A stretch of DNA of 44,241 nt from a virus (lineage: Duplodnaviria > Caudoviricetes), in IMG/VR virus record IMGVR_UViG_3300037483_000122, positions 1 to 44,241 of that record; one strand, 5' to 3'. The position numbers and the translations under genes were made by a program. Every line of letters starts with the position of its first letter. The stretch's first letter is position 1. Below the pieces are notes generated by a model. The model was not told the DNA's origin. It saw nothing but the letters and a program-made list of their open reading frames with translations, and did no database searches. Shown piece after piece: positions 128 through 43,810 of this stretch.

Positions 128-2094
128 ATTTTAACTTGTTCCATGGCATCATTAACAGCAGCAAGGTGCATGTTAACGTGCTCTTCAAAAGCTTGTTTTA
201 TAGGCTCTGGTAAGACCTCAAAAGCTTGTGTTTTACGGAAGTTATTGTGTGTAGTTATATGTACATCATGGTTATCCCACGTATTAACCGGCAATACAGG
301 CGGTGGCATTAGTGGCATACCAGTTTGAGGATCCATAGGCATTTGTGGCATTTGATCCGGAGGCATACTCTGCATCATTTGCATTATCTGATCTTTTTGA
401 GCTTGTGCCTCAGCTACCTGGGTAGGATCAGTAGACCTAAGTTTGACATTCTCTCTTTGTGCCTGAGAGTAGTCGACTCTTAGATTTTGCCAAAGTTTAG
501 TAACTCCACCCATTTCTAACATACGCAGGCCGTCTTCTGGAGTAATGAATCCCATCTTCATCATATCCATTAATAGAGCCTGTTTAGCTGCCTTACTCGT
601 AGGAAGGGATGAGCCGCCCTCCATACGAATATCAGTACCTTTTTTGATATCCGATCCAGCTAGCATTAGGGAATCGAACGTACCGTCATTACCTGTAGTT
701 TTAACCATACGGCTCATATCCCAGAACTGAACAATTAGCTGAAGAGTCTGTTTAGCTATAGACTCCCAGCCATCCTCAATATCAGCGTACGTATGTGACA
801 AAAGTGAATCATCTTGTTCTTGAAGGTATGAAATAGCTGTAGCAGCTGTGACTCCAGGAGGGGCACTACCTTTTGAAACCTCATGCTGTCCACTAATATC
901 TGACATATCCATTATATGGCGATCAAGTTCATTAATAACATATGCAGGAAGGGGCTGTATTGGCATAGGCTTAGGTTCTGGCATACCCGGACGGTACTCA
1001 ATAATAAGACCAGGCTCAGTAGTCCACTTCTTAGGATCAACTGATCCTGTAGCGGCAATAAACTGAGGCTTTGCAGTTCTGTTTTTAGCTTCGGTTATTT
1101 GACTTCTAGTTCTGTTGAATTCTCTTTGGAGAGGCACTAAATCGTTAATAACTGATTCGCCGTAGAATTTACCAGTAGGTATATGTGTAAACTTAGTAAA
1201 AGGATACATACCATGTGCATACATACCCCCTTTAGCTACTATTTGATCCCCGATAATGTGAACTGTACCGCCATCAGGAATAAGCCTGTGCGCTCCTGGC
1301 TTAGCCCATAATTCAATACAAAGAACACTATCAGGATTGGTAGTAACTCCAGTATTAAGATTAAGATATGCGTCAGACAAAATTTCATTAGCAGCTACAG
1401 CGTCCGGATTAACCTTCATATCATAAAATCGCTCAACCCACGCTACAGGCTTTGTATACGCATTAATTAGATATGGTTGATCTTCTATTTCTTCTTCACG
1501 TAAATCAGGAACATACAGATGAAACGGGGTTACGGGAGCATAACAGATATCGCCCTGAGATTCACCATCTTTAGCCCCAGGATCCCACCAAGTTTTCATA
1601 AATGAAGTACCGGTAAGGCACATCCACCACATAGACCTACGAAATTTAGATTTTACCTTTTTACTAGCAGAAATAGACTGCCACAAAGCTTCCCCCGCGT
1701 ACGCGGCAAACATATCCTCATCATCACTGGATGATGGGATAATAGAAGCACTAGGTTCTTGAGCTGTTAGTCTTGCTATCTCTTTTCTAATAATAGGTTT
1801 TATTCTATTAGATACTAGACGAACTCTATACGGAGGGACCTTAGGAATTCCTAGCTTTTGTAACTGAGGCAAAAGCTCTACATACTGATTACCGTAGTAG
1901 AATGCTAAGTTAAGATACCAACCAAGCTGGATCCTTAATCTAGCAGACTTCATACGATCATACTCTGATCGCACCCACTGGGCCAGCTCTAGGTTTTCTT
2001 TTGCTTCTACCTTGCTATCCTTGGCTGGTGAAATATCCCGGGACTGGGATTCCAATTTCGGCAAGAGCTTCTGCATCGAGTTCATCATACTCAT
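13..2094 (-). CDS. Portal protein
   Basis: 693 aa downstream of terminase; FYGESVINDLVPLQREFNRTRSQ, DISGQHEVSKG and TAATAI segments typical of podovirus-like portals. Confidence 0.85.
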   Translation of the reverse strand: MSMMNSMQKLLPKLESQSRDISPAKDSKVEAKENLELAQWVRSEYDRMKSARLRIQLGWYLNLAFYYGNQYVELLPQLQKLGIPKVPPYRVRLVSNRIKPIIRKEIARLTAQEPSASIIPSSSDDEDMFAAYAGEALWQSISASKKVKSKFRRSMWWMCLTGTSFMKTWWDPGAKDGESQGDICYAPVTPFHLYVPDLREEEIEDQPYLINAYTKPVAWVERFYDMKVNPDAVAANEILSDAYLNLNTGVTTNPDSVLCIELWAKPGAHRLIPDGGTVHIIGDQIVAKGGMYAHGMYPFTKFTHIPTGKFYGESVINDLVPLQREFNRTRSQITEAKNRTAKPQFIAATGSVDPKKWTTEPGLIIEYRPGMPEPKPMPIQPLPAYVINELDRHIMDMSDISGQHEVSKGSAPPGVTAATAISYLQEQDDSLLSHTYADIEDGWESIAKQTLQLIVQFWDMSRMVKTTGNDGTFDSLMLAGSDIKKGTDIRMEGGSSLPTSKAAKQALLMDMMKMGFITPEDGLRMLEMGGVTKLWQNLRVDYSQAQRENVKLRSTDPTQVAEAQAQKDQIMQMMQSMPPDQMPQMPMDPQTGMPLMPPPVLPVNTWDNHDVHITTHNNFRKTQAFEVLPEPIKQAFEEHVNMHLAAVNDAMEQVKMVAGGLGMSGLDQSSSGGMPPQQEGQLPPGNEMGAPNG

Positions 2095-2389
2095 CCCTTG
2101 TTACCCTCCTTCCTAAGGATACTCGTTCTGCTTCTGCTGCATCTGATGGATCTACTGGGCCAGAGAATAAGTCAGGACCATTATCCAAGCTGGAAGATAC
2201 TGCTTGGATCTGTTGGAAAGCCAAGGGATCCTTCGAGGCCAATAGATTTAGGGATTGCTGGAGTAGTATCGCTTGATTCCTGTTCGATACCTGTACTGTT
2301 TGAATCGCCTTCATCAGCACTAGAAGAACTAGTATTAATACGATCACGAATACTAGATAGCCTAGCATTAAAATCAAATTTGAGTTCAT
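2015..2389 (-). CDS. Membrane-anchored hypothetical protein
   Basis: N-terminal hydrophobic helix, acidic tail, co-oriented in the operon; overlaps both neighbours. Confidence 0.65.
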   Translation of the reverse strand: MNSNLILMLGYLVFVIVLILVLLVLMKAIQTVQVSNRNQAILLQQSLNLLASKDPLAFQQIQAVSSSLDNGPDLFSGPVDPSDAAEAERVSLGRRVTRDEYDELDAEALAEIGIPVPGYFTSQG

Positions 2390-2678
2390 TGATAGCCCTA
2401 ACTACTTCTTCGGCAGCCCCATCAATATTAGAAGTGAGGGCTTCATGTTCTAGACTCAGTGAAGAATACTTAACTTTAGAGATCATGCCACAAGTAGTAC
2501 CTATCTGAGCACCACAGTCTTCACAGAAGTACACTCTACCGTACCACTGAATTTCTATTCCTAAGTCCACTACTCTTTTATCTACTGCTCCACAAACAAT
2601 ACATTTTCCTGGACTTCGGACAGGTTTTGGTACAAATTGCATTCTTGACTGAAGTGCCTCACTAGGGGCTACCATCAT
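2181..2678 (-). CDS. Hypothetical protein with zinc-ribbon-like N-terminus
   Basis: CIVC and CEDC pairs; ATGA overlap with upstream gene. Confidence 0.7.
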   Translation of the reverse strand: MMVAPSEALQSRMQFVPKPVRSPGKCIVCGAVDKRVVDLGIEIQWYGRVYFCEDCGAQIGTTCGMISKVKYSSLSLEHEALTSNIDGAAEEVVRAINELKFDFNARLSSIRDRINTSSSSADEGDSNSTGIEQESSDTTPAIPKSIGLEGSLGFPTDPSSIFQLG

Positions 2679-3043
2679 GACTCCGGAAATTCGGGGATTT
2701 TACCCTCTTCAGCTTCAGTTTCATCCTCTTCAGCTTCAGTTTCAACAGAGCCACCAAGAGGCATGGGCCCTAAATCAGGGTTATCTGCATTAGCTAACAC
2801 AGCTGATTCATCTAATAGTGGCTTATCAAATTCCGAAGGCTGTAGATGATGAGACTCCACTAGCTCTTTAGCAGTAACTAAAGGTACACCAGCTGTACTA
2901 GTCATATTATTGTAGTCAGGGTGCCGACCTTCGGCAGCTGCCCTCTTATCTTCAGCAGCTCTTAGTTCTACCTCATCAAGATAAGGACCACCGGTACGTC
3001 CATTAGGGCCCTCATTAACGTTAAATAGTGGCTGATCTGGCAT
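2675..3043 (-). CDS. Acidic hypothetical protein
   Basis: Strong AGGAGG RBS, 122 aa ORF. Confidence 0.8.
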   Translation of the reverse strand: MPDQPLFNVNEGPNGRTGGPYLDEVELRAAEDKRAAAEGRHPDYNNMTSTAGVPLVTAKELVESHHLQPSEFDKPLLDESAVLANADNPDLGPMPLGGSVETEAEEDETEAEEGKIPEFPES

Positions 3044-3071
3044 TTTTCCTCCTGTTGTTTCTTACAGAGTA

Positions 3072-4616
3072 TCAAACGTGTCCATCATATTCTAGTGCAA
3101 AAAGATCAGATCCAGCAAAAGTACGCCACTCAGTAGTATTCTCTCTATTATTTTCTAATGCCTGAGCTAGCATAACATCAAATTTCTCAGTTACCGTATT
3201 AATGGGTAGTAGTTTAGCTAGTGCTGCTTCCATCTCCGGAGCTAGATCAGGTAAGAATGACATATAGTATCTTAGAGAGTCAGATGCGTGATCGTCTTTT
3301 TTATGAATCTGTTCATGGGGATTATTCTCAAACTGGGCTTTCTTTCCTGCCCAAGTCTTCCATCTAAGACGCTGAAGCTCACGTATTAAATTAGGACAAT
3401 TTTCTGTGACATGCCATGACGGCTTATTAGTTTTAGGATGTGGTCTAATATAGTGATTAACCTGGTTAACTCCAGTAATCACATCGTTATTACCAGGAGC
3501 AAAAAATACACCATACTTAGCATACTCAGTCTGAATAGAAGTCCCAGTAACACCCTGTCTTTGAGCAATAGCAGGATCAGCTATACTTAACTCAGGAGAT
3601 TTGCCTAGCTTCTTTTCAAACTCTAGAATATACTTAGCATGACGATCTACTGTCCACTCTTTCTTATAGTGCTCAGCAAAAGTAATAACCTGACCAGTCG
3701 GGGAAGCAGCGTGCCATAGAACTGCTGTAGGGTTATTATATCCATGATCTAAGCTTCTAGCCCATTCCCATTCTTTTGGAGGTATCCCAGCTTCGATCAC
3801 ATGAGTATTAGGATCAAATGCCTTGTAGACTTTACCGCCAAGTTGCATAAACTTACCGTGGGCTCGGGCTTCTCTTTCATCTGGATCTAGTCCGGCAAGA
3901 TAAGCTTCAGCTGCTTCGGGACTAATATGAGGATTATCCAACATATCAACTTCAAAGACATCAATAAGAGGATGACCGCCATCTTCCCCTTTTATATACA
4001 ATGTGTCATATATCCAAGTCATACCCTCAAGAGGAGTAAGAGTTAACCAAGAAGGGGCGTTATAGTCAATAAGACGAGCTTGACATTCATTAAAAATTGG
4101 CATAGGAGGTTCTTCGTCATAATGAACAAAATGCCGTGCTGTGCCAGCAAATTTCTCAACATCCTGTTCATACGTCATAAACTCTACAGTAGATCCATTA
4201 GAAAGAGTTAGAAGTCTATCTGTTTTATTATATGAATCTTCCCAGGATCCATTTATCAAAAGACTAGGAGGGGCCCATTGCTTATAATTAGGAATAAGAA
4301 TCTGATTAATACCCTGGAGGATATCTACCGCTACAGCCCTGCCAGCTATTGGAGGCTCAAATACCTTCTTATGTGGGTGTTGCCCTCTTAGATAGTAAAT
4401 ATCCTCAACTACACCTGAAGTAGTTTTACCGGACCGGTTGCCACCTAAAAACAGACGAATACGTTTTTGTGAACGATGAAAAGCTTCTTGTTTTGCATGA
4501 GGTTCGTATGCATGAATATTAGGCTTATTAGCCTGCATACGCACACCTGTAGCAAGAATACGTAGCATTTCCGCAGGGTCACGGACCTGTGCTGTATTCC
4601 TGCGAGGTCTTGGCAT
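3072..4616 (-). CDS. terL: Terminase large subunit
   Basis: PHAKQ motif, Walker A GGNRSGKT, Walker B VHYDEEP, LTLTPLEG, nuclease LDHG and DDHASDSLRY. Confidence 0.95.
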   Translation of the reverse strand: MPRPRRNTAQVRDPAEMLRILATGVRMQANKPNIHAYEPHAKQEAFHRSQKRIRLFLGGNRSGKTTSGVVEDIYYLRGQHPHKKVFEPPIAGRAVAVDILQGINQILIPNYKQWAPPSLLINGSWEDSYNKTDRLLTLSNGSTVEFMTYEQDVEKFAGTARHFVHYDEEPPMPIFNECQARLIDYNAPSWLTLTPLEGMTWIYDTLYIKGEDGGHPLIDVFEVDMLDNPHISPEAAEAYLAGLDPDEREARAHGKFMQLGGKVYKAFDPNTHVIEAGIPPKEWEWARSLDHGYNNPTAVLWHAASPTGQVITFAEHYKKEWTVDRHAKYILEFEKKLGKSPELSIADPAIAQRQGVTGTSIQTEYAKYGVFFAPGNNDVITGVNQVNHYIRPHPKTNKPSWHVTENCPNLIRELQRLRWKTWAGKKAQFENNPHEQIHKKDDHASDSLRYYMSFLPDLAPEMEAALAKLLPINTVTEKFDVMLAQALENNRENTTEWRTFAGSDLFALEYDGHV

Positions 4617-4624
4617 CAGATATC

Positions 4625-4939
4625 CTATGGTGTAGTATTATCTGTGGCACCAAGAGCTACTAAAGCTGCAATTATACTTGGCACAGCTGTAGCGGTTCCT
4701 CGCGTACCACTAAGAGAGAATCCTGCTAAAATCTGAGGACTGCTAGTCCCATCATGTACGTGATTACCAGGAGATGCCTGATTACCCTGAGGGCCTAATG
4801 TATGATGCAGAGACTGTTTAGAGAAATCAGTATCAGCCTTCTCATGTATCTTTTGTACATCCCTAGCATCTAAAGCAGCATCTCTAGTATTTAGTGTTTT
4901 AGCAGGATCACTATTAGGCCCTATAGAAGACTCAGGCAT
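4625..4939 (-). CDS. Hypothetical, possible minor virion protein
   Basis: 104 aa ORF coupled to amidase stop; QASPGNHVHDG motif like those in phage fibre proteins. Confidence 0.7.
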   Translation of the reverse strand: MPESSIGPNSDPAKTLNTRDAALDARDVQKIHEKADTDFSKQSLHHTLGPQGNQASPGNHVHDGTSSPQILAGFSLSGTRGTATAVPSIIAALVALGATDNTTP

Positions 4940-7656: not shown

Positions 7657-7751
7657 ATGCAAAAATATGGTATAAAGACCCTAGAAATGTGAAAAAGAAA
7701 TGCAAAAAAGAAATGCAAAAATATGGTATAAAGACCCTAGAAATGTGAAAA
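7657..7751. repeat. Two 39-bp AT-rich direct repeats with AGAAATG(C/T) subrepeats
   Basis: ATGCAAAAATATGGTATAAAGACCCTAGAAATGTGAAAA at 7657-7695 and 7713-7751. Confidence 0.95.
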
Positions 7752-8357: not shown

Positions 8358-8362
8358 GTAAT

Positions 8363-12016: not shown

Positions 12017-12094
12017 ATGAAGTTGACAGAGTTCCTCTGGATTGTTATCCTGGGTTTCTGCATTGCTGTAGCGCTTAAAGTGGCGTTTGGGTAG
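12017..12094 (+). CDS. 25 aa membrane peptide
   Basis: MKLTEFLWIVILGFCIAVALKVAFG, AGGTGA RBS. Confidence 0.55.
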   Translation: MKLTEFLWIVILGFCIAVALKVAFG

Positions 12095-12106
12095 GAGTCG
12101 AGCTAA

Positions 12107-12244
12107 ATGGCACACTTTAACGCTACAGGTGAGCGAGTAGGTAAGATTCATAATGATCCGTCCTCAGGCACACCTAGTCGTCGGATGCGTAAGGAAGGCA
12201 CTAAATCCCTGATTGCTAAGGGCAAGCGTAAGTCTAAGCGTTAG
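12107..12244 (+). CDS. 45 aa basic peptide
   Basis: AGGAG RBS; K/R-rich C-terminus. Confidence 0.55.
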   Translation: MAHFNATGERVGKIHNDPSSGTPSRRMRKEGTKSLIAKGKRKSKR

Positions 12245-12695: not shown

Positions 12696-12768
12696 TCCCT
12701 CATAACTCAATTGGCAGAGTGGCTGACTGTTAATCAGCTGGTTGTAGGTTCGAGTCCTACTGAGGGAG
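12696..12768 (+). tRNA. tRNA-Asn(GTT)
   Basis: TCCCTCA/TGAGGGA acceptor, GCTGA-CTGTTAA-TCAGC anticodon arm, GTAGG-TTCGAGT-CCTAC T arm; CCA not encoded. Confidence 0.93.
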
Positions 12769-12821
12769 CGCGGTTTACGGGTCCTTCATCGTTGCTCCGG
12801 CCCGAAGGAACATACATAGTT

Positions 12822-15935: not shown

Positions 15936-16057
15936 TGGCTAAGGTTGTTCGTCCTAGTGACCCTCCTATGAACCGCTCGTACCATGAGTGGCAAGGTGGA
16001 CCAGCAAGTGCTAATCCACATATTCCCCCTCACAAGTTAAAGGAGCGTTGCAAGTAA
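15935..16057 (+). CDS. 40 aa hypothetical protein
   Basis: GGAGG RBS, TAATG coupling at both ends. Confidence 0.55.
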   Translation: MAKVVRPSDPPMNRSYHEWQGGPASANPHIPPHKLKERCK

Positions 16058-16350
16058 TGGCAGATAATGACGGAATGAACCCACTAGATGAAATTGAGAC
16101 TCAAGCAGTTCCACCTAAGCGTTTTATTAGTGATGAGGAACTGCAAAACTGGCTGATGTACCATCCGCCAGGTCCACACACTATTCATGTCCATGAAGCT
16201 GTTAGATCAGAAATGACCCAGATGGCACTATGGCTAAACAGAGCACTACCAGAAGGACCTAATAAGACTATCTGTCTCCGCTACCTACAAAAGACAGCAA
16301 TGTTTGCCAATGCAGCTGTAGCGATTGACACTCCTAGTAACGAAAGGTAA
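16057..16350 (+). CDS. Acb2/Tad1-like helical hairpin protein
   Basis: YHPP...HEAVR...LPEGPNKTICLRYLQKTAMFANAAVA pattern; AAGGAG RBS. Confidence 0.6.
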   Translation: MADNDGMNPLDEIETQAVPPKRFISDEELQNWLMYHPPGPHTIHVHEAVRSEMTQMALWLNRALPEGPNKTICLRYLQKTAMFANAAVAIDTPSNER

Positions 16351-16470: not shown

Positions 16471-16564
16471 CGGACTGTAGCTCAATGGAAGAGCCTTAAG
16501 AGCTTTGTGTTCTCCCGAGCAAAAGTATTCTTAAGAGATCTCGGTTCGATTCCGAGCGGTCCAC
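16471..16564 (+). ncRNA. tRNA-like RNA with extended anticodon arm
   Basis: Acceptor GGACTG/CGGTCC, D arm GCTC-AATGGAA-GAGC, T arm CTCGG-TTCGATT-CCGAG, 41-nt arm without a canonical anticodon loop. Confidence 0.7.
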
Positions 16565-19722: not shown

Positions 19723-20589
19723 ATGTTGCTGTCGCATAGTGAAGCTGAAAGTTTCTCTCTTTGTGAAAAACGTCATTATTATGCGTTCGGAGAGAGAATC
19801 CAAGGCCGTAAGTTGTCAATCTCTTTGACTCGGGGGAACTACGGCCATACATTTATGGAACGATTCTTCAAGGTGTTTGCATCTTCTGGTAATTGGGACG
19901 ATGCAATGCGAGCTATTGATATAGTATATGAAGAGTCAATGGTAGAGTGTATTAAAGATACTAAACTAATGGAGATGCTAACAACTCTTAGGCTAAGAGT
20001 TCAAGGTTTTCTTGAGTTCTACAGACATCGTATCCAGCGATGGAATATTGTAGCTGTAGAGCAGGAATTCAGGCTAACACTCCATGAGGATGTAACCTAT
20101 CCTTTTAAGCCTGACCTAATCATTTCAGAAGGTGGGCAGGCTAAACTGATCGACTGGAAGTTCACGTACGATTTCTATGATCCTGATGTAGTTAATCTTC
20201 TTCCTCAGATTCCCAAATATGTAGGCGCCCTCCAGGCTATGGGCTACTCAGTTAGCGGAGGCTACTACGCATTTATTCGCTACAGGAGCCTCAAGGAAGA
20301 AACTCCAGATAGAGTATACAATCTACACCCTGTAGCGCTTAATAAGCAGCGTATTATGTCTGCATTCTCAGATTACGTTAGTTATATTGAAAGCGTATCT
20401 ACTATGCGTGCACTTCCACTACAGGAGTGGTCTGATCGGGCCCGCAGAATTTCTAACAATATGATCTGTAAGTCTTGTGGCTATAAGTTCCTATGTCAAG
20501 CGGAGTTAAATGGGTCAGATGGTATAATGATTCGTCGTCAAGATTTCGTCCCTAACACCTACGGTTATGCTGAGGAACCCGATGCCTAG
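19723..20589 (+). CDS. Cas4/RecB-like PD-(D/E)XK exonuclease
   Basis: LSHSE...CEKRHYY, RGNYGH, AVEQEF, KPDLI, IDWKF, QIPKY, CKSCGYKFLC. Confidence 0.88.
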   Translation: MLLSHSEAESFSLCEKRHYYAFGERIQGRKLSISLTRGNYGHTFMERFFKVFASSGNWDDAMRAIDIVYEESMVECIKDTKLMEMLTTLRLRVQGFLEFYRHRIQRWNIVAVEQEFRLTLHEDVTYPFKPDLIISEGGQAKLIDWKFTYDFYDPDVVNLLPQIPKYVGALQAMGYSVSGGYYAFIRYRSLKEETPDRVYNLHPVALNKQRIMSAFSDYVSYIESVSTMRALPLQEWSDRARRISNNMICKSCGYKFLCQAELNGSDGIMIRRQDFVPNTYGYAEEPDA

Positions 20590-21469
20590 TCCACAAGAAC
20601 TACTTGCCGCATTAGAGGCACAATTAACACCACTTGAGTCTACTAAGCCATGTGGCAAGTTCATGCTATTCGGCAACTCAGGTACAGGTAAAACTGTCCT
20701 ATCTATTAGAATTGCGCAGGCTATTACTCCGCCTGATAAGCAGATTCTATACGTAGACTTTAAAGAAGGCTGGACGTCTCTACTTAACCACGATCCAGCT
20801 CTAAGAGCTAGAGTTACTAGACTCCCCTATGAGAATTATACTCAAGTTAGTCTAGTAGTAGATGCAATCTGGAATAATGTAGGTAAGTTTGCTAATGTTG
20901 GTACTATTGTTATTGATGAGCACACTTCTATGGCTCAAGATGATATGGAAGCTATTACTAGGAATCGTGCTCAGAGTGACAAAGAGAAGGATCCAGATAC
21001 TCCTACATGGCCTGATATGAATACAGCAGGGCTTAGAGCACGACGAGCACTGAATAGCGTCCTGGATCTTCCTATCAATGTTATCCTTGTAGCCCATGAG
21101 AGGGATAATAAAGACCGACGAGGTGTGGTAGTTACTACTCCTAACTACCTACCTAAGCTCTATGCCAAGATTCTAGAGCCTCTTCACTTTGTTGGTCACT
21201 GCACTGCAACACTCCAAGAAGGTGGAGCAGATGCGGGTAAATATGTCCGCCAGGTCCAATGTCATCCATCTAAATTAATTGTCTGCAAGAGTCGAGTTGG
21301 GGGTCTCGGTATTTTCGAGACTCATGAGAACTTAATCGAGAAGCTAACTAGTTGGTTATCTCTAGGAGGAATGCCTGAAAGCGAAGCTGCACAGGTTTCT
21401 TTTCAAGACGAGCAAGAAGTCCTCGGTGAGGGCATCGTAGATGAAGCTGCAATTCTAGTGGAGGATTAA
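20582..21469 (+). CDS. AAA ATPase, Sak4-like recombinase candidate
   Basis: FGNSGTGKT, TIVIDE, NVILVAHE; between nuclease and SSB; GAGG RBS favours ATG 20582. Confidence 0.8.
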   Translation: MPSPQELLAALEAQLTPLESTKPCGKFMLFGNSGTGKTVLSIRIAQAITPPDKQILYVDFKEGWTSLLNHDPALRARVTRLPYENYTQVSLVVDAIWNNVGKFANVGTIVIDEHTSMAQDDMEAITRNRAQSDKEKDPDTPTWPDMNTAGLRARRALNSVLDLPINVILVAHERDNKDRRGVVVTTPNYLPKLYAKILEPLHFVGHCTATLQEGGADAGKYVRQVQCHPSKLIVCKSRVGGLGIFETHENLIEKLTSWLSLGGMPESEAAQVSFQDEQEVLGEGIVDEAAILVED

Positions 21470-21470
21470 A

Positions 21471-21959
21471 ATGGGTATTTTCGGTGCAATGGATATTGAG
21501 TCTGCTGAGGAAAGTCTTTGGCCTAAGAACGATACCTATCGTTGCGTTCTAACTGATGCAGTTGTTGCTCCTTCTAAGAAGACAGCAGACCTTCCAGAGG
21601 GTGAGAAAGAATACTTCTGGGTTCTAACTTACGAAATTCAGGAAGGCCGCTACAAGAGTACGGATCTTTACGAGCGTAAGCGTGTATTCCCAAATATGGA
21701 TCCTGAAAATCCAACTCCTGAAGAGGAGAAGGCAGCTACTTATATTAAGCGTCGACTTAACAGTTTGGGTATTCCTGAATCTCGTCATAACTCTGTGACC
21801 AATGACGACCTTAAGGGAATTGAGTGCGCGGTTACAGTTAAGGAGAACAGTAACTCTGATTTCCCGCCTAATGTTACGAGGGTTGAGCTTCTTCAAGCTA
21901 CGGGTCTTGGTAACGCTCAGCCTGACTCCAGCGGTATGAGCGTATTCAAGGGAATGTAA
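21471..21959 (+). CDS. Single-stranded DNA-binding protein candidate
   Basis: Position after Sak4-like gene; predicted beta-rich pattern with DDLKGIECAVTVK. Confidence 0.65.
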   Translation: MGIFGAMDIESAEESLWPKNDTYRCVLTDAVVAPSKKTADLPEGEKEYFWVLTYEIQEGRYKSTDLYERKRVFPNMDPENPTPEEEKAATYIKRRLNSLGIPESRHNSVTNDDLKGIECAVTVKENSNSDFPPNVTRVELLQATGLGNAQPDSSGMSVFKGM

Positions 21960-21964: not shown

Positions 21965-21996
21965 CTCGCTACAGGTGGGGCAACACCTGTAGCGAG
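21965..21996. repeat. Perfect 13-bp inverted repeat built from two CGCTACAGG motifs
   Basis: CTCGCTACAGGTG-GGGCAA-CACCTGTAGCGAG. Confidence 0.9.
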
Positions 21997-21999: not shown

Positions 22000-22073
22000 G
22001 CCGATATATCCCAATAGGCAGAGGAACTCGACTTAAAATCGAGTCAGTGTGAGTTCGAGTCTCACTATCGGCA
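22000..22073 (+). tRNA. tRNA-Leu(TAA), short variable loop
   Basis: GCCGATA/TATCGGC acceptor, CTCGA-CTTAAAA-TCGAG, GTGAG-TTCGAGT-CTCAC, discriminator A. Confidence 0.9.
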
Positions 22074-22074
22074 C

Positions 22075-22497
22075 GTGGACAAAGAGCTAATAACTCCTAT
22101 TATCGTGGCAGTAATAGTATCCACAACAGGTCCTTTATTACTAGGATACTTAACAGACAGAGCTAGACGTAGGGACAAGAAAGAAGATTACGCACGCCAA
22201 GATATCGTAGCGGACCGCGCAGAAGAAGCTGCCCGACTTTTATTGGAAGAGAATAAACGAGTAGCAGAAGCTACAGCACAAACGCAAGGACAACTGCAGG
22301 AAATACACACTTTAGTAAACTCTAACCTCACGGCAGCAATGCAGGCAGAATTAAGTGCGTGTGAGGCCCTTTTAGAGATGAAAATAAGATACTCTGAAGT
22401 TGATGAAGAGCTACGATTGAAAATTGTAGAACTAAAAACTATCTTATATGATCGAACAAAAGCAACTGAACTAGGCGAGTCACAGAGAAAAATCTAG
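22075..22497 (+). CDS. Membrane-anchored coiled-coil protein between two tRNAs
   Basis: GTG start, N-terminal TM, IHTLVNSNLT segment. Confidence 0.75.
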   Translation: MDKELITPIIVAVIVSTTGPLLLGYLTDRARRRDKKEDYARQDIVADRAEEAARLLLEENKRVAEATAQTQGQLQEIHTLVNSNLTAAMQAELSACEALLEMKIRYSEVDEELRLKIVELKTILYDRTKATELGESQRKI

Positions 22498-22570
22498 GGC
22501 TATTAGCTCAGTAGGTTAGAGCAACACTCTTATAAAGTGTAGGTCTCGGGTTCAAGTCCCGAATAGCCCA
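22497..22570 (+). tRNA. tRNA-Ile(TAT)
   Basis: GGGCTAT/ATAGCCC acceptor, ACACT-CTTATAA-AGTGT, TCGGG-TTCAAGT-CCCGA. Confidence 0.92.
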
Positions 22571-22596
22571 CATGGACACTAAGGAGGGTCTAGCTA

Positions 22597-23182: not shown

Positions 23183-25024
23183 GTGGGAGCCGGTAACTCT
23201 CCCGCTGAGAGGTTGAATCAGTTTTTCACCTTTATGTGGGGAGAAACGGAAGGATACGTTTACCTTCCAACTAAGGACAAAGCAGGGGCTTGGAAGAAGT
23301 GGATGTATAGATGGCCCCTTAATAGAACAGAAGTAATTAATCACGTCCTAAGCGCTTCGGCGACTCAACGGGACGTGTACTTTTCTCCGGCCATTTTTAG
23401 AAAAGCAAAACCTGAGAAAGAGTATATTCTTGGCGCTCAAGTAATCTGGGCAGAGTATGACGGTAATGCTCCTGATGAGTGGACCGAGGCGCCAGATGGG
23501 AGCGCTGACGGGGCACACACGGCCGTTCCTGGCCCCCCTAGCCTGAGGGTCCAATCGAGCACCGACACGCACCAGCACTGTTATTGGAAGCTAGAAGAGC
23601 TTAGTACCGATGTAGAATTTATTGAACGGGTAAATAGAGCAATAGCCTACGAAACTAAGTCAGATACTAGCGGTTGGGACGCTAATCAGGTCCTTAGGCC
23701 ACCACATACTATCAACTACAAGCATGATTTAGAAGTTACAGTAGTAGAAGAAAATGATAGAGAATACCATAACAAGCATTTCTCTCATATTAAATCATTC
23801 AAAGAACTAGTCGATACAAATATTGATATAAATGAACTGCCTCCGGTACAGGAGTTGATTGGTAAATATCAATGGGAAGCTGATACTCTAAATCTTCTTC
23901 TAAAAGATGCAGATAATATCCCTACAGGTATGCGTTCTTCAGCACTTATGCGTATAGGGTTCCACTGTGCTGAATTAGGAATGTCAGATTCAGAAGCCTA
24001 TGCTATTTTAATTTGGGCTGACGATAAATGGGGTAAGTTCAAAGGTCGCTCAGATCGTAAGAAGCGACTAATTGACATAATCAATAGGGCAAGACAGAAG
24101 CATCCTAGGGCTACCGAGACAGTCACATTTGCCGGTCTAGTTTCTCCAGACACTAAAATAGAGACAGATACTAGAATTGTCTATGGCTTCCAGGACCTTC
24201 TAAAAGCTGAGATCCGTATTGAATGGGCTATTAAAGATTTAATGCCTAGAGCTGGACTAGGTATTATTGGCTCAGCCTCAGGTGTAGGTAAAACGCAGCT
24301 ATCACTCAATATGGCTATACGCTGCGCCCTGTCGCGGGACTTTTTAGGCTGGTCTCCTATAGGTCGCCAAAAATTACTATTCCTAGAACTAGAGATGAAT
24401 GCCGGTTCGTTCAAACATTTTATTAGTAATATGGCTCAAGCCTATAGTCCAGAAGATTTAGAGACGCTACAGCGCAATCTTCTACTAGCACCTATAAATG
24501 AGCCTATCCCACTGCATCATCCGACTGGAAGACAGTTCATAGAAGAACTAATAGTCAAATATCAACCTGATGGCATAGTCATTGACTCTCTTGGTAAGAT
24601 TCACCTTGGCAACTTGAACGATGATGAGTTAATCCGTAAGACTATGATATATATCAACTATTTGCGTTCAAAATTTGGAGTCTATGTCTGGATCATCCAC
24701 CACAACAGAAAAGCTCAAGAAGGTAATAAACGTCCTAGAAAACTAGAAGACCTGTATGGTAATCAGTATCTTACAACTGACCTAGACATAGCGATTAGTC
24801 TATGGAAAGAAGAGGATGGCAGACTTGAGCTAAGACAAGTAAAGAACCGTTTAGCAGAAGAGGTACCCCCATTTAGTATCCGACGTGTCGAACATCTTCA
24901 GTTTATTAGAGATGACACGGCTATGCCAGAAGGTATAATGAATGGACTTCAAAAAGGTATTACTCCCCCCAAAGATGAACCCCCTAACGGGGGAATTCCA
25001 CACTTTGACCTTGGAGTTGGATGA
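23183..25024 (+). CDS. RepB-type primase fused to RecA-family (AAA_25/SF4-like) helicase
   Basis: VYFSPA, IWAEYD, VQSS...HQHCYWKL, DANQVLRPPHTINYK; Walker A SASGVGKT, IVIDSL, IIHHNRK. Confidence 0.88.
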   Translation: MGAGNSPAERLNQFFTFMWGETEGYVYLPTKDKAGAWKKWMYRWPLNRTEVINHVLSASATQRDVYFSPAIFRKAKPEKEYILGAQVIWAEYDGNAPDEWTEAPDGSADGAHTAVPGPPSLRVQSSTDTHQHCYWKLEELSTDVEFIERVNRAIAYETKSDTSGWDANQVLRPPHTINYKHDLEVTVVEENDREYHNKHFSHIKSFKELVDTNIDINELPPVQELIGKYQWEADTLNLLLKDADNIPTGMRSSALMRIGFHCAELGMSDSEAYAILIWADDKWGKFKGRSDRKKRLIDIINRARQKHPRATETVTFAGLVSPDTKIETDTRIVYGFQDLLKAEIRIEWAIKDLMPRAGLGIIGSASGVGKTQLSLNMAIRCALSRDFLGWSPIGRQKLLFLELEMNAGSFKHFISNMAQAYSPEDLETLQRNLLLAPINEPIPLHHPTGRQFIEELIVKYQPDGIVIDSLGKIHLGNLNDDELIRKTMIYINYLRSKFGVYVWIIHHNRKAQEGNKRPRKLEDLYGNQYLTTDLDIAISLWKEEDGRLELRQVKNRLAEEVPPFSIRRVEHLQFIRDDTAMPEGIMNGLQKGITPPKDEPPNGGIPHFDLGVG

Positions 25025-26735
25025 TTTCTTAAAAGGACTCGCTACAGCACCTGTAGCGGCTATTGACTTGGAGACTAATGGACAGGATTGCAGAGATGGA
25101 CGAGGCTACACACAAGGAATATCTGCGGCCTATGAATACCCCGGTTTGGGACTTATCTCTCACTACATGCCATTTAGACACCTTTACGGAACTAACCTGG
25201 AGATATCTATATGGCTGCCAAGAGTCAAAGAAGCCATTGAGTCTAGAGATTCTCTCATCACTGTAACACACAATAATAAAGCTGATATAGTATTTGCAGA
25301 TAGTTTTGGTATTGATATTAGGATGCCAGGACTACTCTGTACTATGTTAATGGCTCATCTAATTAATGAAATACTACCATATAAGAAATCACTTGATAGT
25401 GTTGGAAAATACTACTTAAACGATCCGGGTAAGAAAGAATCACCTGAGTTCATAGCATTGCGTGATAAAGTAGGATGGCACGCTATACCATCTGAACTTA
25501 TGTATGAGTACGCTAGGTATGATTCAGATTTAGACTATAGAATATACTTCAAACTACTTCCTAAATGGAATGCTGAAGAACTACAAGACTACTGGCCACT
25601 AAAACAAAAGACAACCAATGTAGTGATTGAAATGGAACGTCGTGGAGTTCTCATTGATGTGCCGTTATGTAAACATATGACGGTTATTGGCAATGAGCAA
25701 ATGGGAGAACTCACCGAATTACTAGGTTTCAATCCAGGATCTACTAAAGAATTAGGCAAAGTCCTAATTGATAAAATGGGACTTCCTGTAGTTAAAAAGA
25801 CCCCAGCTGGCAAACCATCCTTTGATAAGTACGCTATGGAAGAATACGAAGAGATTCTTGAAAGGATGGAGGATGAAACAGCGCAATATATTCTTACCTA
25901 CCGGGGCTGGCAGAAGTCAGTATCTTCAAATTTCGTACCCTATGTTGCCTTACTTTCACCGGATGGGCGCCTTCGTCCTAATTACAAACTACACGGCACC
26001 AAGACTGGTCGTTTTTCTTGCGAAAAACCGAACTTGCAACAAATTCCACGGGTAAGTGACAAACCCTGGAATGGCGAAATGAAACAGGCATTTATCGCTA
26101 TGCCAGGATATTCTCTATGGGAGGCTGACTATGGTCAGTTGGAGTTTCGTCTTGCCACGGCATATGCTAAAGAGCAGTCCCTACTCGCAATTTTTGCTGA
26201 AGATAGAGATATATTCTCGGAAATGGCCGCTGTTACTGGCCTGGCACGCCATGACCAAAAAACACTTGTGTACACAATTCAGTATGGAGGGGGAGTCAGG
26301 AGAGTTTCAAACGTATTCGGTGTTACGCCGCAAAGGGCTAAAGACCTTATTGAAGGTTACTATCGAGCCTATCCCGGGTTCAGAGTTGTTAACGCCAGAG
26401 CCCAGCAAGTAACTAGAGCTAAAGGAAAAGTTCAACTTTGGAGTGGGCGCTACAGGCATTTTCAGTGGCCTAAAGATGAGGCCCATAAAGCTTTCAACTC
26501 TATAATTCAAGGCGGCGCGGCAGATATTGTCGAAGGCTCCATGCACCGTTTATATGACGGAGTAGACGACGAAGACAAGTGTAGGATGCTACTCCAGGTA
26601 CACGATTCTATTGTGTTTGAAATTAGAGATGATCTAGTAGATCACTATAGGCCACAAATTATAGACATAATGGAAAGTGTACCAGTAGACTTTGGCGTCC
26701 GATTCAAAGTTGATTTTCATAGATGGGGAGAGTAA
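24942..26735 (+). CDS. DNA polymerase family A with 3'-5' exonuclease
   Basis: IDLET, HNNKAD, YARYD, TGRFSCEKPNLQQIP, ADYGQLEFR, KTLVYTIQYG, NSIIQGGAAD, QVHDSI; start uncertain. Confidence 0.95.
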   Translation: MDFKKVLLPPKMNPLTGEFHTLTLELDDFLKGLATAPVAAIDLETNGQDCRDGRGYTQGISAAYEYPGLGLISHYMPFRHLYGTNLEISIWLPRVKEAIESRDSLITVTHNNKADIVFADSFGIDIRMPGLLCTMLMAHLINEILPYKKSLDSVGKYYLNDPGKKESPEFIALRDKVGWHAIPSELMYEYARYDSDLDYRIYFKLLPKWNAEELQDYWPLKQKTTNVVIEMERRGVLIDVPLCKHMTVIGNEQMGELTELLGFNPGSTKELGKVLIDKMGLPVVKKTPAGKPSFDKYAMEEYEEILERMEDETAQYILTYRGWQKSVSSNFVPYVALLSPDGRLRPNYKLHGTKTGRFSCEKPNLQQIPRVSDKPWNGEMKQAFIAMPGYSLWEADYGQLEFRLATAYAKEQSLLAIFAEDRDIFSEMAAVTGLARHDQKTLVYTIQYGGGVRRVSNVFGVTPQRAKDLIEGYYRAYPGFRVVNARAQQVTRAKGKVQLWSGRYRHFQWPKDEAHKAFNSIIQGGAADIVEGSMHRLYDGVDDEDKCRMLLQVHDSIVFEIRDDLVDHYRPQIIDIMESVPVDFGVRFKVDFHRWGE

Positions 26736-38737: not shown

Positions 38738-38745
38738 GGTATCCC

Positions 38746-39189: not shown

Positions 39190-39461
39190 GTTGGGGGCTC
39201 CTCATTAGCTAGTTCATACATATCACGTAAAGTTTCCCCAACCCCGTCAGCTCCTGTCTTAGCTTTCAATCTAGCAAACTCTCTGTCAGTAATAGAACCG
39301 GTCGTGTATCCAAGTCCTGTCAAATACTGCATATATAAATCAGCATTAGTCTTCCAATATCCAGCAGGAGGAGCTGGTGGATCAGATAACTGGGTTAGGT
39401 ACCCAACTGGTCTTACCTGTAAAGGTTGAGTGTACCTAACTAGCCTTCCTAAATTAGCCAT
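39177..39461 (-). CDS. Hypothetical protein
   Basis: GAGGAG RBS, TAATG coupling. Confidence 0.7.
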   Translation of the reverse strand: MANLGRLVRYTQPLQVRPVGYLTQLSDPPAPPAGYWKTNADLYMQYLTGLGYTTGSITDREFARLKAKTGADGVGETLRDMYELANEEPPTWLL

Positions 39462-40249: not shown

Positions 40250-41147
40250 GGGGGGTTACAAAATTATTATTATCTAGATATCTGTTCTCTGGGAAACTAT
40301 AGATAAGGTTACTATTGATATTAAATGAGTTGCTTACAAAATCTCTTCCCCACTTGTTATTACTAATAGTACCAATATCAACGCCAGAAAGACTTGTCTT
40401 AGACGCATTAACTGTTACTTCTCCGCCATAGAGCCAGTTACCGTTTACAAGACCATTCATATCACTGACATTATCTGTATACATTAGAACTGAAGTAGAC
40501 TGAATTTGTCCATCACCAGGCATTTCACCAAACGGTGCTACCTGGCTATTAAATCCGTGTAACGAGTTACCTAGTATGTTGAAATTAGTCCCACCTTCAA
40601 TTTGAATAACATCATTGTGGGTACCGTCAGTTTGAGATGGATCATTAGCCCACCAAAGTAGTTCATCTCCGTAGCACTGCTGCACCCACACATCAGCTAC
40701 AGACCCCCCACGGTTACGAATTCTAACGCCATCTTTAAAACGTCTAATATAGCAACGTAAAGCTTTAAATCCATAACCTACAATAGCATACTCATGAGTT
40801 GAGTTAGTAGGAGACTCAGCTTCAAAAGTACAGTCGTTATACTCTGTACCGCCATAGCTGTTAGTTGTATCGTCACAGTCAGCTCTGTTAGAAAACCAAC
40901 AGTTATTATATTTAATGTTATCAGCTCTACGACTAGCTATGCCTTGAAACCAGATATTATTGAATATTTGACCATCAGTGCTGTGCGTTACGTTGCCAGC
41001 TACTACTGTTAAAGCTGACCTAGCTGGTGTGCCTCCTACAATACCAGTTGTAGAAACTGGAGCAGGCTCATACCCATATAGTTGTAAATCTCCCCGACCA
41101 GTAGAGGCGCCTAATCCGGTCGGCAAAACTCTAGGCCGGACAAGCAT
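40236..41147 (-). CDS. Parallel beta-helix (pectin-lyase-like) protein, possible depolymerase
   Basis: DGTHNDVIQIEGG, ILGN, NGNWLYGG, ISNNKWG Asn-ladder pattern; AAAGGTG RBS before ATG 41147. Confidence 0.7.
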   Translation of the reverse strand: MLVRPRVLPTGLGASTGRGDLQLYGYEPAPVSTTGIVGGTPARSALTVVAGNVTHSTDGQIFNNIWFQGIASRRADNIKYNNCWFSNRADCDDTTNSYGGTEYNDCTFEAESPTNSTHEYAIVGYGFKALRCYIRRFKDGVRIRNRGGSVADVWVQQCYGDELLWWANDPSQTDGTHNDVIQIEGGTNFNILGNSLHGFNSQVAPFGEMPGDGQIQSTSVLMYTDNVSDMNGLVNGNWLYGGEVTVNASKTSLSGVDIGTISNNKWGRDFVSNSFNINSNLIYSFPENRYLDNNNFVTPHVAS

Positions 41148-41148
41148 G

Positions 41149-41607
41149 TTAGCACCTTTCAAAGACCATAGACGCTCTAGCATTTACGGGAGCCGGAGCA
41201 GTGCACCTGAGAATAAATGCATTGGATACGGCACAGTCAGGAGTATCTCCCAAAGGCCAGTCGTACCATAGAGTACCACCTACAGGAGTTATAAGGCTCT
41301 GCTCAATTACTGTTAGTACAGTAGGCTCAGCAGTATAGCTATACCCGGTTGTGAACCCAGCAGTAATAGTACGGCCATATATCTGCCGAACAGTTCCTGC
41401 CGTAGAAGTACCTGCTGTAGCCTGAGTTGAAGTACACAGCTCACATAGAACGGGAGCTGCACTAAATGTCACACCGTCAAAAGATAGCTTAAGCTTCTTA
41501 AGGTCTACACCAAATTGTGCAGGAGCTATAACACTAAGAACTGATTTAGCAACACCGGCTGCCAAAGCTGTAGCCGCTTCATTTCGTACGGAGTATCCAG
41601 CCTTCAT
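41149..41607 (-). CDS. Putative capsid decoration or virion protein
   Basis: GAGGAG RBS before ATG 41607; A/T-rich beta pattern; directly after capsid gene. Confidence 0.65.
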   Translation of the reverse strand: MKAGYSVRNEAATALAAGVAKSVLSVIAPAQFGVDLKKLKLSFDGVTFSAAPVLCELCTSTQATAGTSTAGTVRQIYGRTITAGFTTGYSYTAEPTVLTVIEQSLITPVGGTLWYDWPLGDTPDCAVSNAFILRCTAPAPVNARASMVFERC

Positions 41608-41627
41608 TTTTAAACTCCTCATGAAGA

Positions 41628-41655
41628 AGTGGGGGCGGCCGTAACCGCCCCCACT
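41628..41655 (-). terminator. Terminator after major capsid gene
   Basis: 11-bp perfect stem AGTGGGGGCGG/CCGCCCCCACT then TCTT. Confidence 0.8.
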
Positions 41656-41663
41656 ATCTAATC

Positions 41664-42854
41664 TTAACCTTCGGTAAGATCCTTGATAACTCCGTGGCTG
41701 TTGCGGCGATGCGTACCAAGCTCACTGTACTGGAACATAGTAGCTTCGTAAGCGTCATATCCAACTACACGCTGCCACATAGAACCATCACGGTCCATAA
41801 AGGACCAGTCAGCTTCTCGGTACCACTTAAGCATCTTCTCATTAACATGGAACTGAGTATTCGGAGGCGCATCAGTATCTGCTACTACAGGAATTTCACC
41901 ATCATCAGTAGTAAACGCAAGACCGGTGAAGCCACCGGTGAACTCTTTAACATTTACAATCTGACGCTGCTGAGAAAGCAGGTTGAAGTATGCCCTACGA
42001 ACACCGAGGCTCTGGAGAATAAGAGAAACCTTGCCACCCTTGGTACGGATGCTGTCAACTGCAAGGATCATAAGACCCTCTGACAGTGCACGGTTAGTAC
42101 CACTGTTAGAGTCTACATAGGACTTCCACCGGGGCTGAGTAGTGGGGTCAACATTAAAGAGAGTCCCACTATCTTTAATAATAGACCCAAAACCATCCCA
42201 TTCACGGCCATAGTTGCCGGTACGGACAACTAAGTCACCCGCTACACCGGTAACGGCCGCACCACTAATAGTGATAGTCTTAGTAGCAGTGTTAACAGCA
42301 GTAATTTCACGGTTAGACGCAATAATCGTACCATTGGCCTGGGTAACATCTACCATCTGACCTTCTTCTGCCCACACAACGTGTGTACCAACAATATCGT
42401 TGGACGAAGTATAGGTAGCCGCAGAAGTTACAATAGCACCCAGAGTATCTCCGTAGACCTGGCGGTTAAGGTCTTTAGCAAGGTCAGTTTTAAGGCCATT
42501 AACTTCCAGATCCAATGCAGAAATGAAAGCCTGAGGATTAGACTTAGCAAGTTCCATAGTCTGGCCAGTTAGCTGGACTCGGCCATACAGGTACTTAAGG
42601 CCGACACGTGCAGCTGCGGTACCCTGCTGACCAGCAGTAGGCAGGGCCTCAGATTCATTACGAGCACCAATACCAGAGTTACGCTTGGTGTGAATTGGGA
42701 AAACTACGTACTTACCGCCAACATCTGAAGAGACACCTTCAGATGTTTTTTGAACACGAGTAAGGGCAGTAGTACTATTATTAAGCTGGTCCTGCATATC
42801 CTTTTCATACAGTTCTTTAGTGATTGCACTAATAGTGGTCATTGTTGCAGGCAT
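41664..42854 (-). CDS. Major capsid protein
   Basis: 396 aa after scaffold; GIGARNESEALP, KDLNRQVYGD, HRRNSHGVIKDL; biased codon use; downstream terminator. Confidence 0.88.
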   Translation of the reverse strand: MPATMTTISAITKELYEKDMQDQLNNSTTALTRVQKTSEGVSSDVGGKYVVFPIHTKRNSGIGARNESEALPTAGQQGTAAARVGLKYLYGRVQLTGQTMELAKSNPQAFISALDLEVNGLKTDLAKDLNRQVYGDTLGAIVTSAATYTSSNDIVGTHVVWAEEGQMVDVTQANGTIIASNREITAVNTATKTITISGAAVTGVAGDLVVRTGNYGREWDGFGSIIKDSGTLFNVDPTTQPRWKSYVDSNSGTNRALSEGLMILAVDSIRTKGGKVSLILQSLGVRRAYFNLLSQQRQIVNVKEFTGGFTGLAFTTDDGEIPVVADTDAPPNTQFHVNEKMLKWYREADWSFMDRDGSMWQRVVGYDAYEATMFQYSELGTHRRNSHGVIKDLTEG

Positions 42855-43810
42855 TATGACTCCCTCAAAGCACTAGTCAGCAGCGATACGCCGTACGCTT
42901 TACGTTGTTCTTCTGTCATTCCCTTAGTGCCCGGTGAAGCAGTAGAAGGAGTACCATTGCTAGGCGGGATAACTGGAGGAGCCCCATTATTAGGAGTAGG
43001 AGTGTTCCTAATCCCACTAATAAGTTCCACATACTGCCCCACAGCTGCGTCAAGAGCGCCATCAAAATCTTTAGTACGCTCTCCTATTGCAGCTGCTGAA
43101 TGAATGATGTAGTCCCAAGCTTTTGCTGCCTGAGGATTAGAATTAGGATTCATATCTAATCCGTATTTCTCTTTCAGACTAGCAGTAATTTGAGACTGCT
43201 TCATATCCAGCCAAGTATCTGCCTGACGTTGCATCTCCATCTGCTGAGCATGTTCCAGCTGCTGCGCTATCATTTGCTGCTGCTGCTCTAATTGCTGAAA
43301 TCTGGGATCCTTACTTATATCTACTTGCTGATCCCCAAATTCCCCAAGGTCTACTTCACCAGTTTGTTGCTGTGGCTGCTGGCCCTGCTCACCTAACGCC
43401 CCTTGACTTTGTAACCATTCACCCATTTGACTATAGAAAGTAACCGGGTCAGTATTAAGAAGATTATACATCTGCTGAGCATTACGTAACTGCTCAGGGT
43501 CCGGCTTACTCTCTAAAAATTCTTTATAAGGAGCATACTGTGAGTGTACCTGAGTTAGCTTTTCCTGAACTCCTTTATCCCACTTTTCCAGGGTAGGACG
43601 AAGGTTGTCATGAAGCATTTCTGGAACCTGAGAAAGAATTTCCTGCCAAGCAGGATGTCCGGTACTAGTCTGCGACGCTACAGGCTCTGTAGGTGTTACT
43701 TGTGGAGGCTCTTGAAAAGTAGGAGCTGTAGCGGCAGGAGTAGTAGCTGGATCTCCTGTTTCTGTAGCATTAGCAGTATTTAAAGCATTAAGAGCTTCTT
43801 CAGGTCCCAT
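42854..43810 (-). CDS. Capsid scaffolding protein
   Basis: Q/E/P-rich, between portal and capsid genes. Confidence 0.75.
   Translation of the reverse strand: MGPEEALNALNTANATETGDPATTPAATAPTFQEPPQVTPTEPVASQTSTGHPAWQEILSQVPEMLHDNLRPTLEKWDKGVQEKLTQVHSQYAPYKEFLESKPDPEQLRNAQQMYNLLNTDPVTFYSQMGEWLQSQGALGEQGQQPQQQTGEVDLGEFGDQQVDISKDPRFQQLEQQQQMIAQQLEHAQQMEMQRQADTWLDMKQSQITASLKEKYGLDMNPNSNPQAAKAWDYIIHSAAAIGERTKDFDGALDAAVGQYVELISGIRNTPTPNNGAPPVIPPSNGTPSTASPGTKGMTEEQRKAYGVSLLTSALRES

Follow-up and report, generated by a model that had tools for sequence, protein, structure and literature searches.

The complete phage genome IMGVR_UViG_3300037483_000122 from IMG/VR (44,241 nt; we call this whole stretch of DNA the window) carries the octamer CGCTACAG, or its reverse complement CTGTAGCG, at 56 sites. 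It also encodes a primase-helicase of 613 amino acids (23183..25024, + strand) that is probably the reader of this word. The genome's ends overlap by 127 nt, and it is classed as 100% complete. The phage is a Jasmine/Shocker-like actinobacterial podophage: among named phages, those closest to it are Cellulosimicrobium phage DS1, Microbacterium phage Shocker, and the Arthrobacter podoviruses Jasmine and Adat. Because these relatives infect Cellulosimicrobium, Microbacterium, and Arthrobacter, its own host is presumably an actinobacterium. The primase-helicase matches AAA_25 and, across amino acids (aa) 9-197, the DNA primase family phrog_10514, and its homologues in Jasmine and Shocker are annotated as DNA primase/helicase. 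The next gene encodes a family A DNA polymerase (PolA) with a 3'-5' exonuclease (24942..26735, + strand; PF00476, E = 8e-66, and PF01612). The rest of the replication module lies at 19723..21959 (+ strand) and comprises a PD-(D/E)XK exonuclease, a Sak4-like annealing protein, and, judging from its position, a possible single-stranded DNA-binding protein (21471-21959); the genes in this segment also occur in relatives that lack the word. Elsewhere, the window encodes a P22-like portal, a terminase, an SU10-type capsid, WhiB, an SNF2 helicase, and an Acb2/Tad1-like protein.

The first-pass annotation, which was made from the sequence alone, had counted the 56 sites by hand against about one expected by chance. 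All of its coordinates are exact, and none are missing or extra across the whole window. On the + strand there are 30 copies of CGCTACAG (1441..43683), for which the template would be the - strand, reading CTGTAGCG; these start at 1441, 4329, 5454, 6069, 6487, 7356, 7458, 9212, 10224, 12121, 13347, 14888, 15788, 18217, 20278, 21967, 24465, 25040, 26448, 27265, 28718, 29508, 30993, 32487, 33126, 34350, 37209, 37911, 39509, and 43676. The other 26 copies are on the - strand (1047..43733) and appear on the + strand as CTGTAGCG, starting at 1047, 4687, 5851, 10966, 11365, 11465, 11556, 12066, 12920, 13649, 14469, 15698, 16316, 17617, 18364, 20330, 21987, 25051, 27436, 28787, 32402, 33572, 35402, 36366, 39817, and 43726. 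Dinucleotide shuffles of the window contain 1.20 sites on average (standard deviation 1.11, maximum 4, n = 100), and order-2 and order-3 Markov models predict 1.4-2.1. Each single-mismatch neighbour of CGCTACAG has just 0-6 copies. As had also been noticed, the next base is usually G or C, rarely T, and never A (35, 18, 3, and 0 sites, respectively). The third base after the octamer is G or C at 45 of the 56 sites, and beyond about 3 nt there is no conserved flank around these dispersed sites.

The 49 listed open reading frames (ORFs) cover 86% of the window and contain 44 of the 56 sites, and several of the other 12 fall in small ORFs. The in-gene sites occupy five of the six combinations of frame and strand. 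If we count a site that lies in two overlapping ORFs twice, then there are 45 in-gene sites, as compared to 1.7 under synonymous shuffles (maximum 5, n = 300), 2.1 under synonymous shuffles that keep the next base (maximum 7), and 7.2 in codon-pair Markov runs that were trained on the same sequence (maximum 15, n = 200). The word is encoded at 45 of the 82 peptide contexts that could encode CGCTACAG or CTGTAGCG. The first-pass annotation had argued that protein sequence does not explain the word and had proposed a comparison to codon-shuffled and Markov backgrounds; the excess survives all three codon-aware nulls, including the codon-pair one. The word is genuine, sharply defined, and not dictated by protein sequence; it is written mostly through silent codon choices.

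Nor is the word tied to transcription. Both orientations are found in both transcription arms (17 + and 10 - in one, 13 + and 16 - in the other), as had been pointed out in distinguishing it from the stoperators of mycobacteriophage L5, which are also repeated asymmetric motifs but are intergenic. Stoperators and start-associated motifs are oriented with transcription, while the sites in the window are mostly within listed genes and face either way. The repeat motifs of actinobacteriophage clusters EC, EF (SAS/ESAS), EG, and EI are 13-18 nt or longer, have 5-12 copies, and are intergenic and tied to gene starts (PMC7302621). These are likewise repeated, asymmetric, and found in actinobacteriophages, but the word in the window is intragenic and occurs in both orientations. 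The words that we describe are not mentioned in the text that we saw of the surveys of Microbacterium phages (PMC7302621, whose main text contains neither GTGTGG nor CCACAC) and Arthrobacter phages (PMC5513430).

The sites tend to be evenly spread within a strand. On the window's + strand, the mean gap is 1470 nt and the coefficient of variation (CV) of the gaps is 0.59 (P = 0.0006 versus random placement), which is the lowest of 386 matched words. With both strands pooled, the CV is 0.96. Among the family genomes that carry such a word (leaving aside Streptomyces phage Satis, which we treated as a control here), 23 of 68 strands are significantly even (p < 0.05), and when each of 67 strands is ranked against words with a similar count, 28 are in the lowest 5% and 60 are below the median. 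Permuting the strand labels abolishes the evenness (p < 0.05) in 10 of 33 genomes, with p = 0.013 for the window. Furthermore, pairs of sites within 150 bp are depleted if they are on the same strand (155 versus 200 expected) but not if they are on opposite strands (206 versus 190 expected). If the signal is read on single-stranded template, then selection would be expected to act on one strand at a time, as seen here. The word is asymmetric, is placed per strand, and has a spacing on the scale of replication fragments, as dispersed primase sites would; this is clear for the window's + strand and is not significant for its - strand. In five linear siphoviruses with this type of word (L005, L006, L007, L009, and L010), the word is strand-biased, for example 7 versus 32 sites in FF47, unlike in the window.

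Conservation in relatives is another check that had been proposed. Of 144 window sites in genes that could be aligned to five relatives with the same octamer, 17 are matched by a site at the identical position, while about 0.5 would be expected by chance; most sites have turned over. The density and the spacing of the sites are kept, and their positions mostly are not.

A few pairs of sites have unusual arrangements. At 12066-12128, two sites face away from each other within an imperfect inverted repeat of 23 nt that shares CACTTTAA. This is the layout that would be expected of a bidirectional start, but there is no comparable extended repeat among the divergent pairs listed for six relatives. 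Close divergent pairs do not show an origin-like excess (110 divergent and 96 convergent pairs versus 95 expected for each), and the GC skew of the window follows transcription and does not indicate an origin. Two facing pairs form perfect hairpins, with stems of 11 bp (21967-21994, between the end of a gene and a tRNA) and 8 bp (25040-25058, which scores as terminator-like on the - strand).

The predicted structure of the primase-helicase suggests how it might recognize a template. It has three parts: a catalytic domain of the archaeo-eukaryotic primase (AEP) superfamily, of the type found in RepB' of plasmid RSF1010 and in phage S-2L (aa 5-205; 23195..23797, + strand); a helix bundle (aa 203-312; 23789..24118, + strand); and a superfamily 4 helicase domain like RepA of RSF1010 (aa 330-587; 24170..24943, + strand). 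The model of aa 1-312 has a pLDDT of 92, and its best match in Foldseek is RepB' (3h20, E = 1e-9). In VIA comparisons, the catalytic domain aligns to S-2L PrimPol (6zp9) with Z = 19.1 and a root-mean-square deviation (rmsd) of 2.6 over 174 residues, and 3h25 gives Z = 17.1 (rmsd 4.3, 184 aligned). RepB' (3h20) aligns across aa 6-307 with Z = 17.3 and an rmsd of 15.8. The helix bundle resembles that of the pRN1 primase (6gt7; Z = 7.8, rmsd 3.7, 103 aligned), which is a middling score for a helical bundle. The helicase domain matches RepA both by structure (1nlf; Z = 26.1, rmsd 3.0, 237 aligned) and by profile (hmmsearch with 1g8y, E = 3e-7). The putative catalytic residues D93, H132, D161, and R172 are invariant in both alignments and E91 is present, at positions that align to those of S-2L. 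Of 42 family members, 17 have weak matches to the family model PF16793 (RepB_primase), the best with E = 2e-5 and others with E as high as 1; the window's protein has none, and among five proteins only that of Erla exceeds the cut-off. The predicted model has the AEP fold, the metal-binding, histidine, and arginine residues of motifs I-III, and the C-terminal helix bundle of a RepB'-type primase, and we predict that the protein folds as a RepB'-type AEP primase with a helix bundle and a RepA-like helicase.

In one large clade whose word is CGACAG (L058, L061, L065, L069, L072, L079, L080, L083, L084, and L090), the primase gene is split near aa 190 into a gene for the catalytic domain and a gene for the helix bundle and helicase, often with overlapping stop and start codons, and the word persists. 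Within the primase, position 286 is tyrosine in all 23 rows with CG-type words and phenylalanine in 30 of 36 rows with A-type words. This is only a hint, as many of the rows are from one clade and the labels were set by hand. In a quick tree of the N-terminal part (63 rows, with split genes dropped), the words group by clade with a few switches, but relatives share labels, so we do not use this as evidence.

Similar words are found in other genomes with this primase. A scan of viral contigs with a single protein had found no relatives, but a scan with an alignment found 101 loci, and nearly all of the best 80 have a top word of the ACAG/ACAC class. We ranked all 6-9-mers against an order-3 Markov model in 35 genomes: the window, 21 of the 29 contigs from the primase scan (taken whole or nearly whole), 4 named podophages, and 9 named siphoviruses and myoviruses. 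The top word contains ACAG or ACAC in 33 of these and is CGCTACA or CCGACA in the other two. CGCTACAG itself has 28-63 copies in five of the 21 contigs. The word is (G)CGACAG in DS1, CCACAG in Jasmine, CCTACAG in a contig from a spring (MW202795), and CTTTACAG in Shocker (45 copies versus 0.1-1.8 expected). Shocker and two contigs (G015 and G020) are enriched for both CTTTACAG and CGACAG, which is perhaps a switch of specificity in progress. Shocker also has 15 copies of TACCCTAA versus about 0.1 expected. The nine siphoviruses and myoviruses are distant from the window; they are phages of Serratia, Pseudomonas, Yersinia, Brevundimonas, Gordonia, Mycobacterium, Arthrobacter, and Microbacterium, plus one uncultured phage. 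The primase-helicase and PolA are the only two of the window's 49 proteins that were detected in every one of them. CCACAC is common to the phages of Serratia, Pseudomonas, Yersinia, Gordonia, and Mycobacterium, and this word of distant relatives is depleted in Jasmine (1 copy versus 11 expected). Erla, first considered as a negative control, turned out to encode a diverged version of this primase and to have a word of its own, GGCCACAC (38 copies versus 2.5 expected). Altogether, of the 36 genomes with this primase that were picked through it, 35 carry a word of this class; the exception is Satis.

We also chose genomes without regard to the primase, by their capsid (best 80 of 479) or their terminase (best 80 of at least 554), and searched the 23 longer contigs that were new. 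Of the 15 that are at least 90% complete, nine match the primase profile and six do not. All nine have a word of this class in their first 40 kb (for example, CGCGACAG, with 42 copies versus 0.9 expected), while none of the six has one anywhere in the contig (Fisher p = 2e-4). Three of the six are as near to the window as the others are, by the large terminase subunit (TerL, 52-54%) and by capsid (57-58%). They keep a stand-alone gene for the helicase domain as well as Sak4, the exonuclease, SNF2, RuvC, WhiB, XRE, and the small terminase subunit (TerS), and they lack the AEP domain, the helix bundle, and PolA. In the other three, PolA is missing and the only AEP match is a distant one within a long ORF. 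A search of the primase-less relatives for a Toprim primase found none. The presence of the word follows the primase, although in this set the primase is not separated from PolA. Three other genomes are informative: Arthrobacter phage Amigo has only the primase part in common with the window and has a word (GCACAC); MW202475, with only the helicase domain and PolA in common, has none; and neither does MW202554, which has PolA and a homologue of the capsid. Finally, among 18 podovirus genomes, the distance between words correlates with the distance between TerL proteins (rho = 0.39), helix bundles (0.35), helicase domains (0.35), portals (0.28), and TerS (0.23), weakly with that of the AEP domain (0.19), and not with that of PolA (-0.07).

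We think it likely that the phage's primase itself uses the word as its initiation site in discontinuous synthesis, on the template 5'-SCTGTAGCG-3'. The observations behind this are the excess of the word, its independence of protein sequence, its evenness within strands, the domains predicted for the primase, and the co-occurrence of the word class with the primase and PolA; priming itself is argued by analogy. The first-pass annotation had proposed a DNA-level signal and had listed priming, genome coating, packaging, Chi-like protection, and self-marking. The general idea stands, and of its items, priming fits best and the others are disfavoured. In this scheme, the RepA-like helicase would expose a single-stranded template, and the helix bundle would set the word by binding 5'-(C/G)CTGTAGCG-3'. 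The AEP domain would lay down a short primer, and the neighbouring family A polymerase would extend it. Initiation would occur about every 1.5 kb (1.5-1.7 kb in the window) on either strand, and if forks run in both directions, then both strands would undergo Okazaki-type synthesis. By analogy to RepB', whose primers begin with dATP at the T of GTG (PMC8567376), the primer would begin with A-C-A-G-(G/C). By analogy to the NrS-1 primase-polymerase, which prefers GTGG or GTGA as the site that its helix bundle reads and begins synthesis one base to the 5' side of that site (PMC8718748), the primer would begin with A-G-(G/C). In either register, the primer would start with A and run into a G/C-rich tail, and the 3' part of the site (AGCG) would be read but not copied. 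This 3' part is what varies between lineages (AGCG, GGCG, AGCC, AGG, AAAG, CG, GG, GC, or GGCC). Selection would maintain the density and spacing of the sites rather than their positions.

Parts of this scheme have precedents. In phage T7, the gp4 primase-helicase works with a family A polymerase and uses 5'-GTC-3' sites; this primase is of the DnaG/TOPRIM type. The window similarly has a primase fused to a superfamily 4 helicase beside PolA, and priming would occur at dispersed sites, but it has no Toprim_2 match and its word is longer and depends on the lineage. RSF1010 has the closest solved fold for aa 1-312, the same combination of AEP domain and helix bundle, and a partner helicase of the RepA type, and we propose that priming here likewise begins at a T of a GT-containing core. 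However, the RSF1010 sites ssiA and ssiB are 40-nt hairpins, one each, for leading-strand-only replication (PMC8567376). The window does not have such sites, with one hairpin per strand at an origin; it has an 8-9-nt word, without a hairpin, in 56 mostly genic copies, and its primase and helicase are one protein. ORF904 of pRN1 prefers GTG (PMC10250227), and in both the pRN1 and NrS-1 primases, the template site is read by the helix bundle (PMC8718748). These too are AEP primases with helix bundles and sequence-specific template sites, and GTGG lies within the GTGTGG of five distant relatives. The GTG or GTGG sites measured for the RepB', pRN1, and NrS-1 primases are either contained in the template cores GTGTGG and CTGT.. 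or similar to them. But pRN1 and NrS-1 belong to another branch of the AEPs (VIA Z of 5.7-7.5, versus 17-19 for RepB' and S-2L), and those enzymes polymerise DNA themselves. The octamer of the NrS-1 primase, TTTGGTTA, is not enriched across the NrS-1 genome. NrS-1 does have 11 copies of AAGTGTAAC versus 0.2 expected and 31 copies of GTGGTT versus 11 expected. S-2L PrimPol gave the best VIA match to the window's catalytic domain, but it is the sole polymerase of its phage and has a different C-terminal domain, and its priming template is reported as unknown (PMC8065100).

Several results weigh against priming by this enzyme. First, NrS-1 and S-2L have AEP primases that were studied before, and neither genome has a comparable grid: TTTGGTTA occurs once in NrS-1, and the same word method gave no clear, evenly spaced word in S-2L. 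Second, Satis has PolA, an AEP domain, and a helix bundle (E = 5.5e-37), but the 50 kb that we searched of its 187 kb contain no word of this class. Third, the window's - strand (mean gap 1696 nt, CV 0.78) is not significantly even on its own (P = 0.12; 8th percentile of 462 matched words), and in 12 of 35 genomes the pooled strands are even as well. Fourth, no residue of the primase cleanly predicts the word, and the distance comparison did not separate the primase from the terminase (0.35 for the helix bundle versus 0.39 for TerL). Also, the 35 genomes were chosen via the primase, so that its presence in them, though not that of the words, is by construction. Similarly, the six wordless genomes represent about two lineages that lost the primase and PolA together, so the Fisher p value overstates their independence.

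The same replication module might read the word for another purpose: to load or pause the helicase-primase hexamer, to restart stalled forks, or under selection via PolA. The primase, the fused helicase, and PolA do travel together, the distance between words tracks the helicase domain as well as it tracks the helix bundle, and restart at GTG sites was proposed by the authors of the NrS-1 study (PMC8718748). We nevertheless consider these alternatives to be rather unlikely. Four genomes that are close to the window by capsid (G030, G031, G033, and G045) have a stand-alone RepA-like helicase, with no AEP domain, Toprim primase, or PolA detected, and they lack the word; Amigo has a word without this helicase domain; and two genomes have PolA without this primase and without a word. 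The distance between PolA proteins also shows no correlation with that between words.

We give very little weight to a site for packaging, genome coating, or stoperator-like regulation that is bound by the small terminase, the capsid, or an XRE, helix-turn-helix, WhiB, or Lsr2-like protein. The window does encode several helix-turn-helix proteins, and within the podovirus family the motif distance tracks both TerL and TerS. But in six complete genomes without the primase part and PolA, no such word is found although TerS, TerL, portal, and capsid are all kept (as are XRE and WhiB in three of them), which also argues against the packaging items of the first-pass annotation. Conversely, the nine siphoviruses and myoviruses have no detected match to these proteins and do carry the word class, and the orientation of the sites is not tied to transcription.

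It seems just as improbable that the word is read by the host, as a Chi-like, KOPS-like, uptake, or methylation self-mark. Asymmetric octamers spread over coding sequence, like the word here, are characteristic of Chi and uptake sequences. However, two phages of the same strain, Arthrobacter sp. ATCC 21022, have different words: Jasmine has 101 copies of CCACAG versus 30 expected and 9 of GCACAC versus 8, while Amigo has 88 copies of GCACAC versus 27 expected and 23 of CCACAG versus 24. Conversely, CCACAC is common to phages of unrelated hosts from different phyla. Among the phages that we compared, the host does not set the word. As for self-marking, a scan of the window's 49 proteins against family libraries found no methyltransferase family. 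Lastly, it is barely credible that the word is a by-product of codon or amino acid usage: 23 of the 44 in-gene sites do share one frame (PVA/AVA), but the three codon-aware nulls rule this out, and the use of five frames, the rarity of near-matches, and a spacing that is evener than that of matched words all argue against it.

The window has some other features. There are tRNA calls for Asn-gtt (12696-12769), Gln-ttg (16471-16564), Leu-taa (22000-22074), and Ile-tat (22497-22571), three of which are confirmed by Rfam; a scan of the window found no other Rfam family. The Acb2/Tad1-like hairpin protein (16048-16350; PF24729, E = 1e-8) is likely, from its sequence, to be a nucleotide-signal sponge that acts against host defence. 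In the AT-rich gap between the divergent arms, at 7657-7751, there is an exact direct repeat of 39 nt, with its copies 56 nt apart.

Sequence-specific priming by AEPs and dispersed priming sites were already known. The variant here is a RepB'-type primase-helicase with a lineage-specific word of 6-9 nt that forms a per-strand grid in coding DNA. We found no report of such a grid in the passages of the open-licence literature that we searched. What we add is the RepB'-type family, the range of its words, and the control by module swaps. So far, sequence-specific AEP primases have been characterised singly, with sites of three or four bases or with hairpins at origins, and finding the right template can block an assay, as was reported for S-2L. 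From the genomes, a template can now be predicted for every primase in a large family, including those of the cultured phages Jasmine, Shocker, Erla, Emalyn, and Amigo. With predicted templates in tractable phages, the specificity of primases, the control of fragment length, and the co-evolution of proteins and sites become directly testable. The word is also a hidden constraint on synonymous sites, which matters for the recoding of phage genomes. In addition, these primases may form an orthogonal set.

A wider proposal, which we hold tentatively and would not yet bet on, is that a widespread phage replisome of RepB'-type primase-helicase and PolA runs on a private, evolvable priming code of 6-9 letters, with silent rewriting holding the grid in place on each strand. 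If this is true, then each lineage's helix bundle would read its own word, and the specificity of hundreds of uncharacterised primases could be read from genome sequences alone. A phage's primase would then strongly favour its own DNA as a template over that of its host or of a co-infecting phage.

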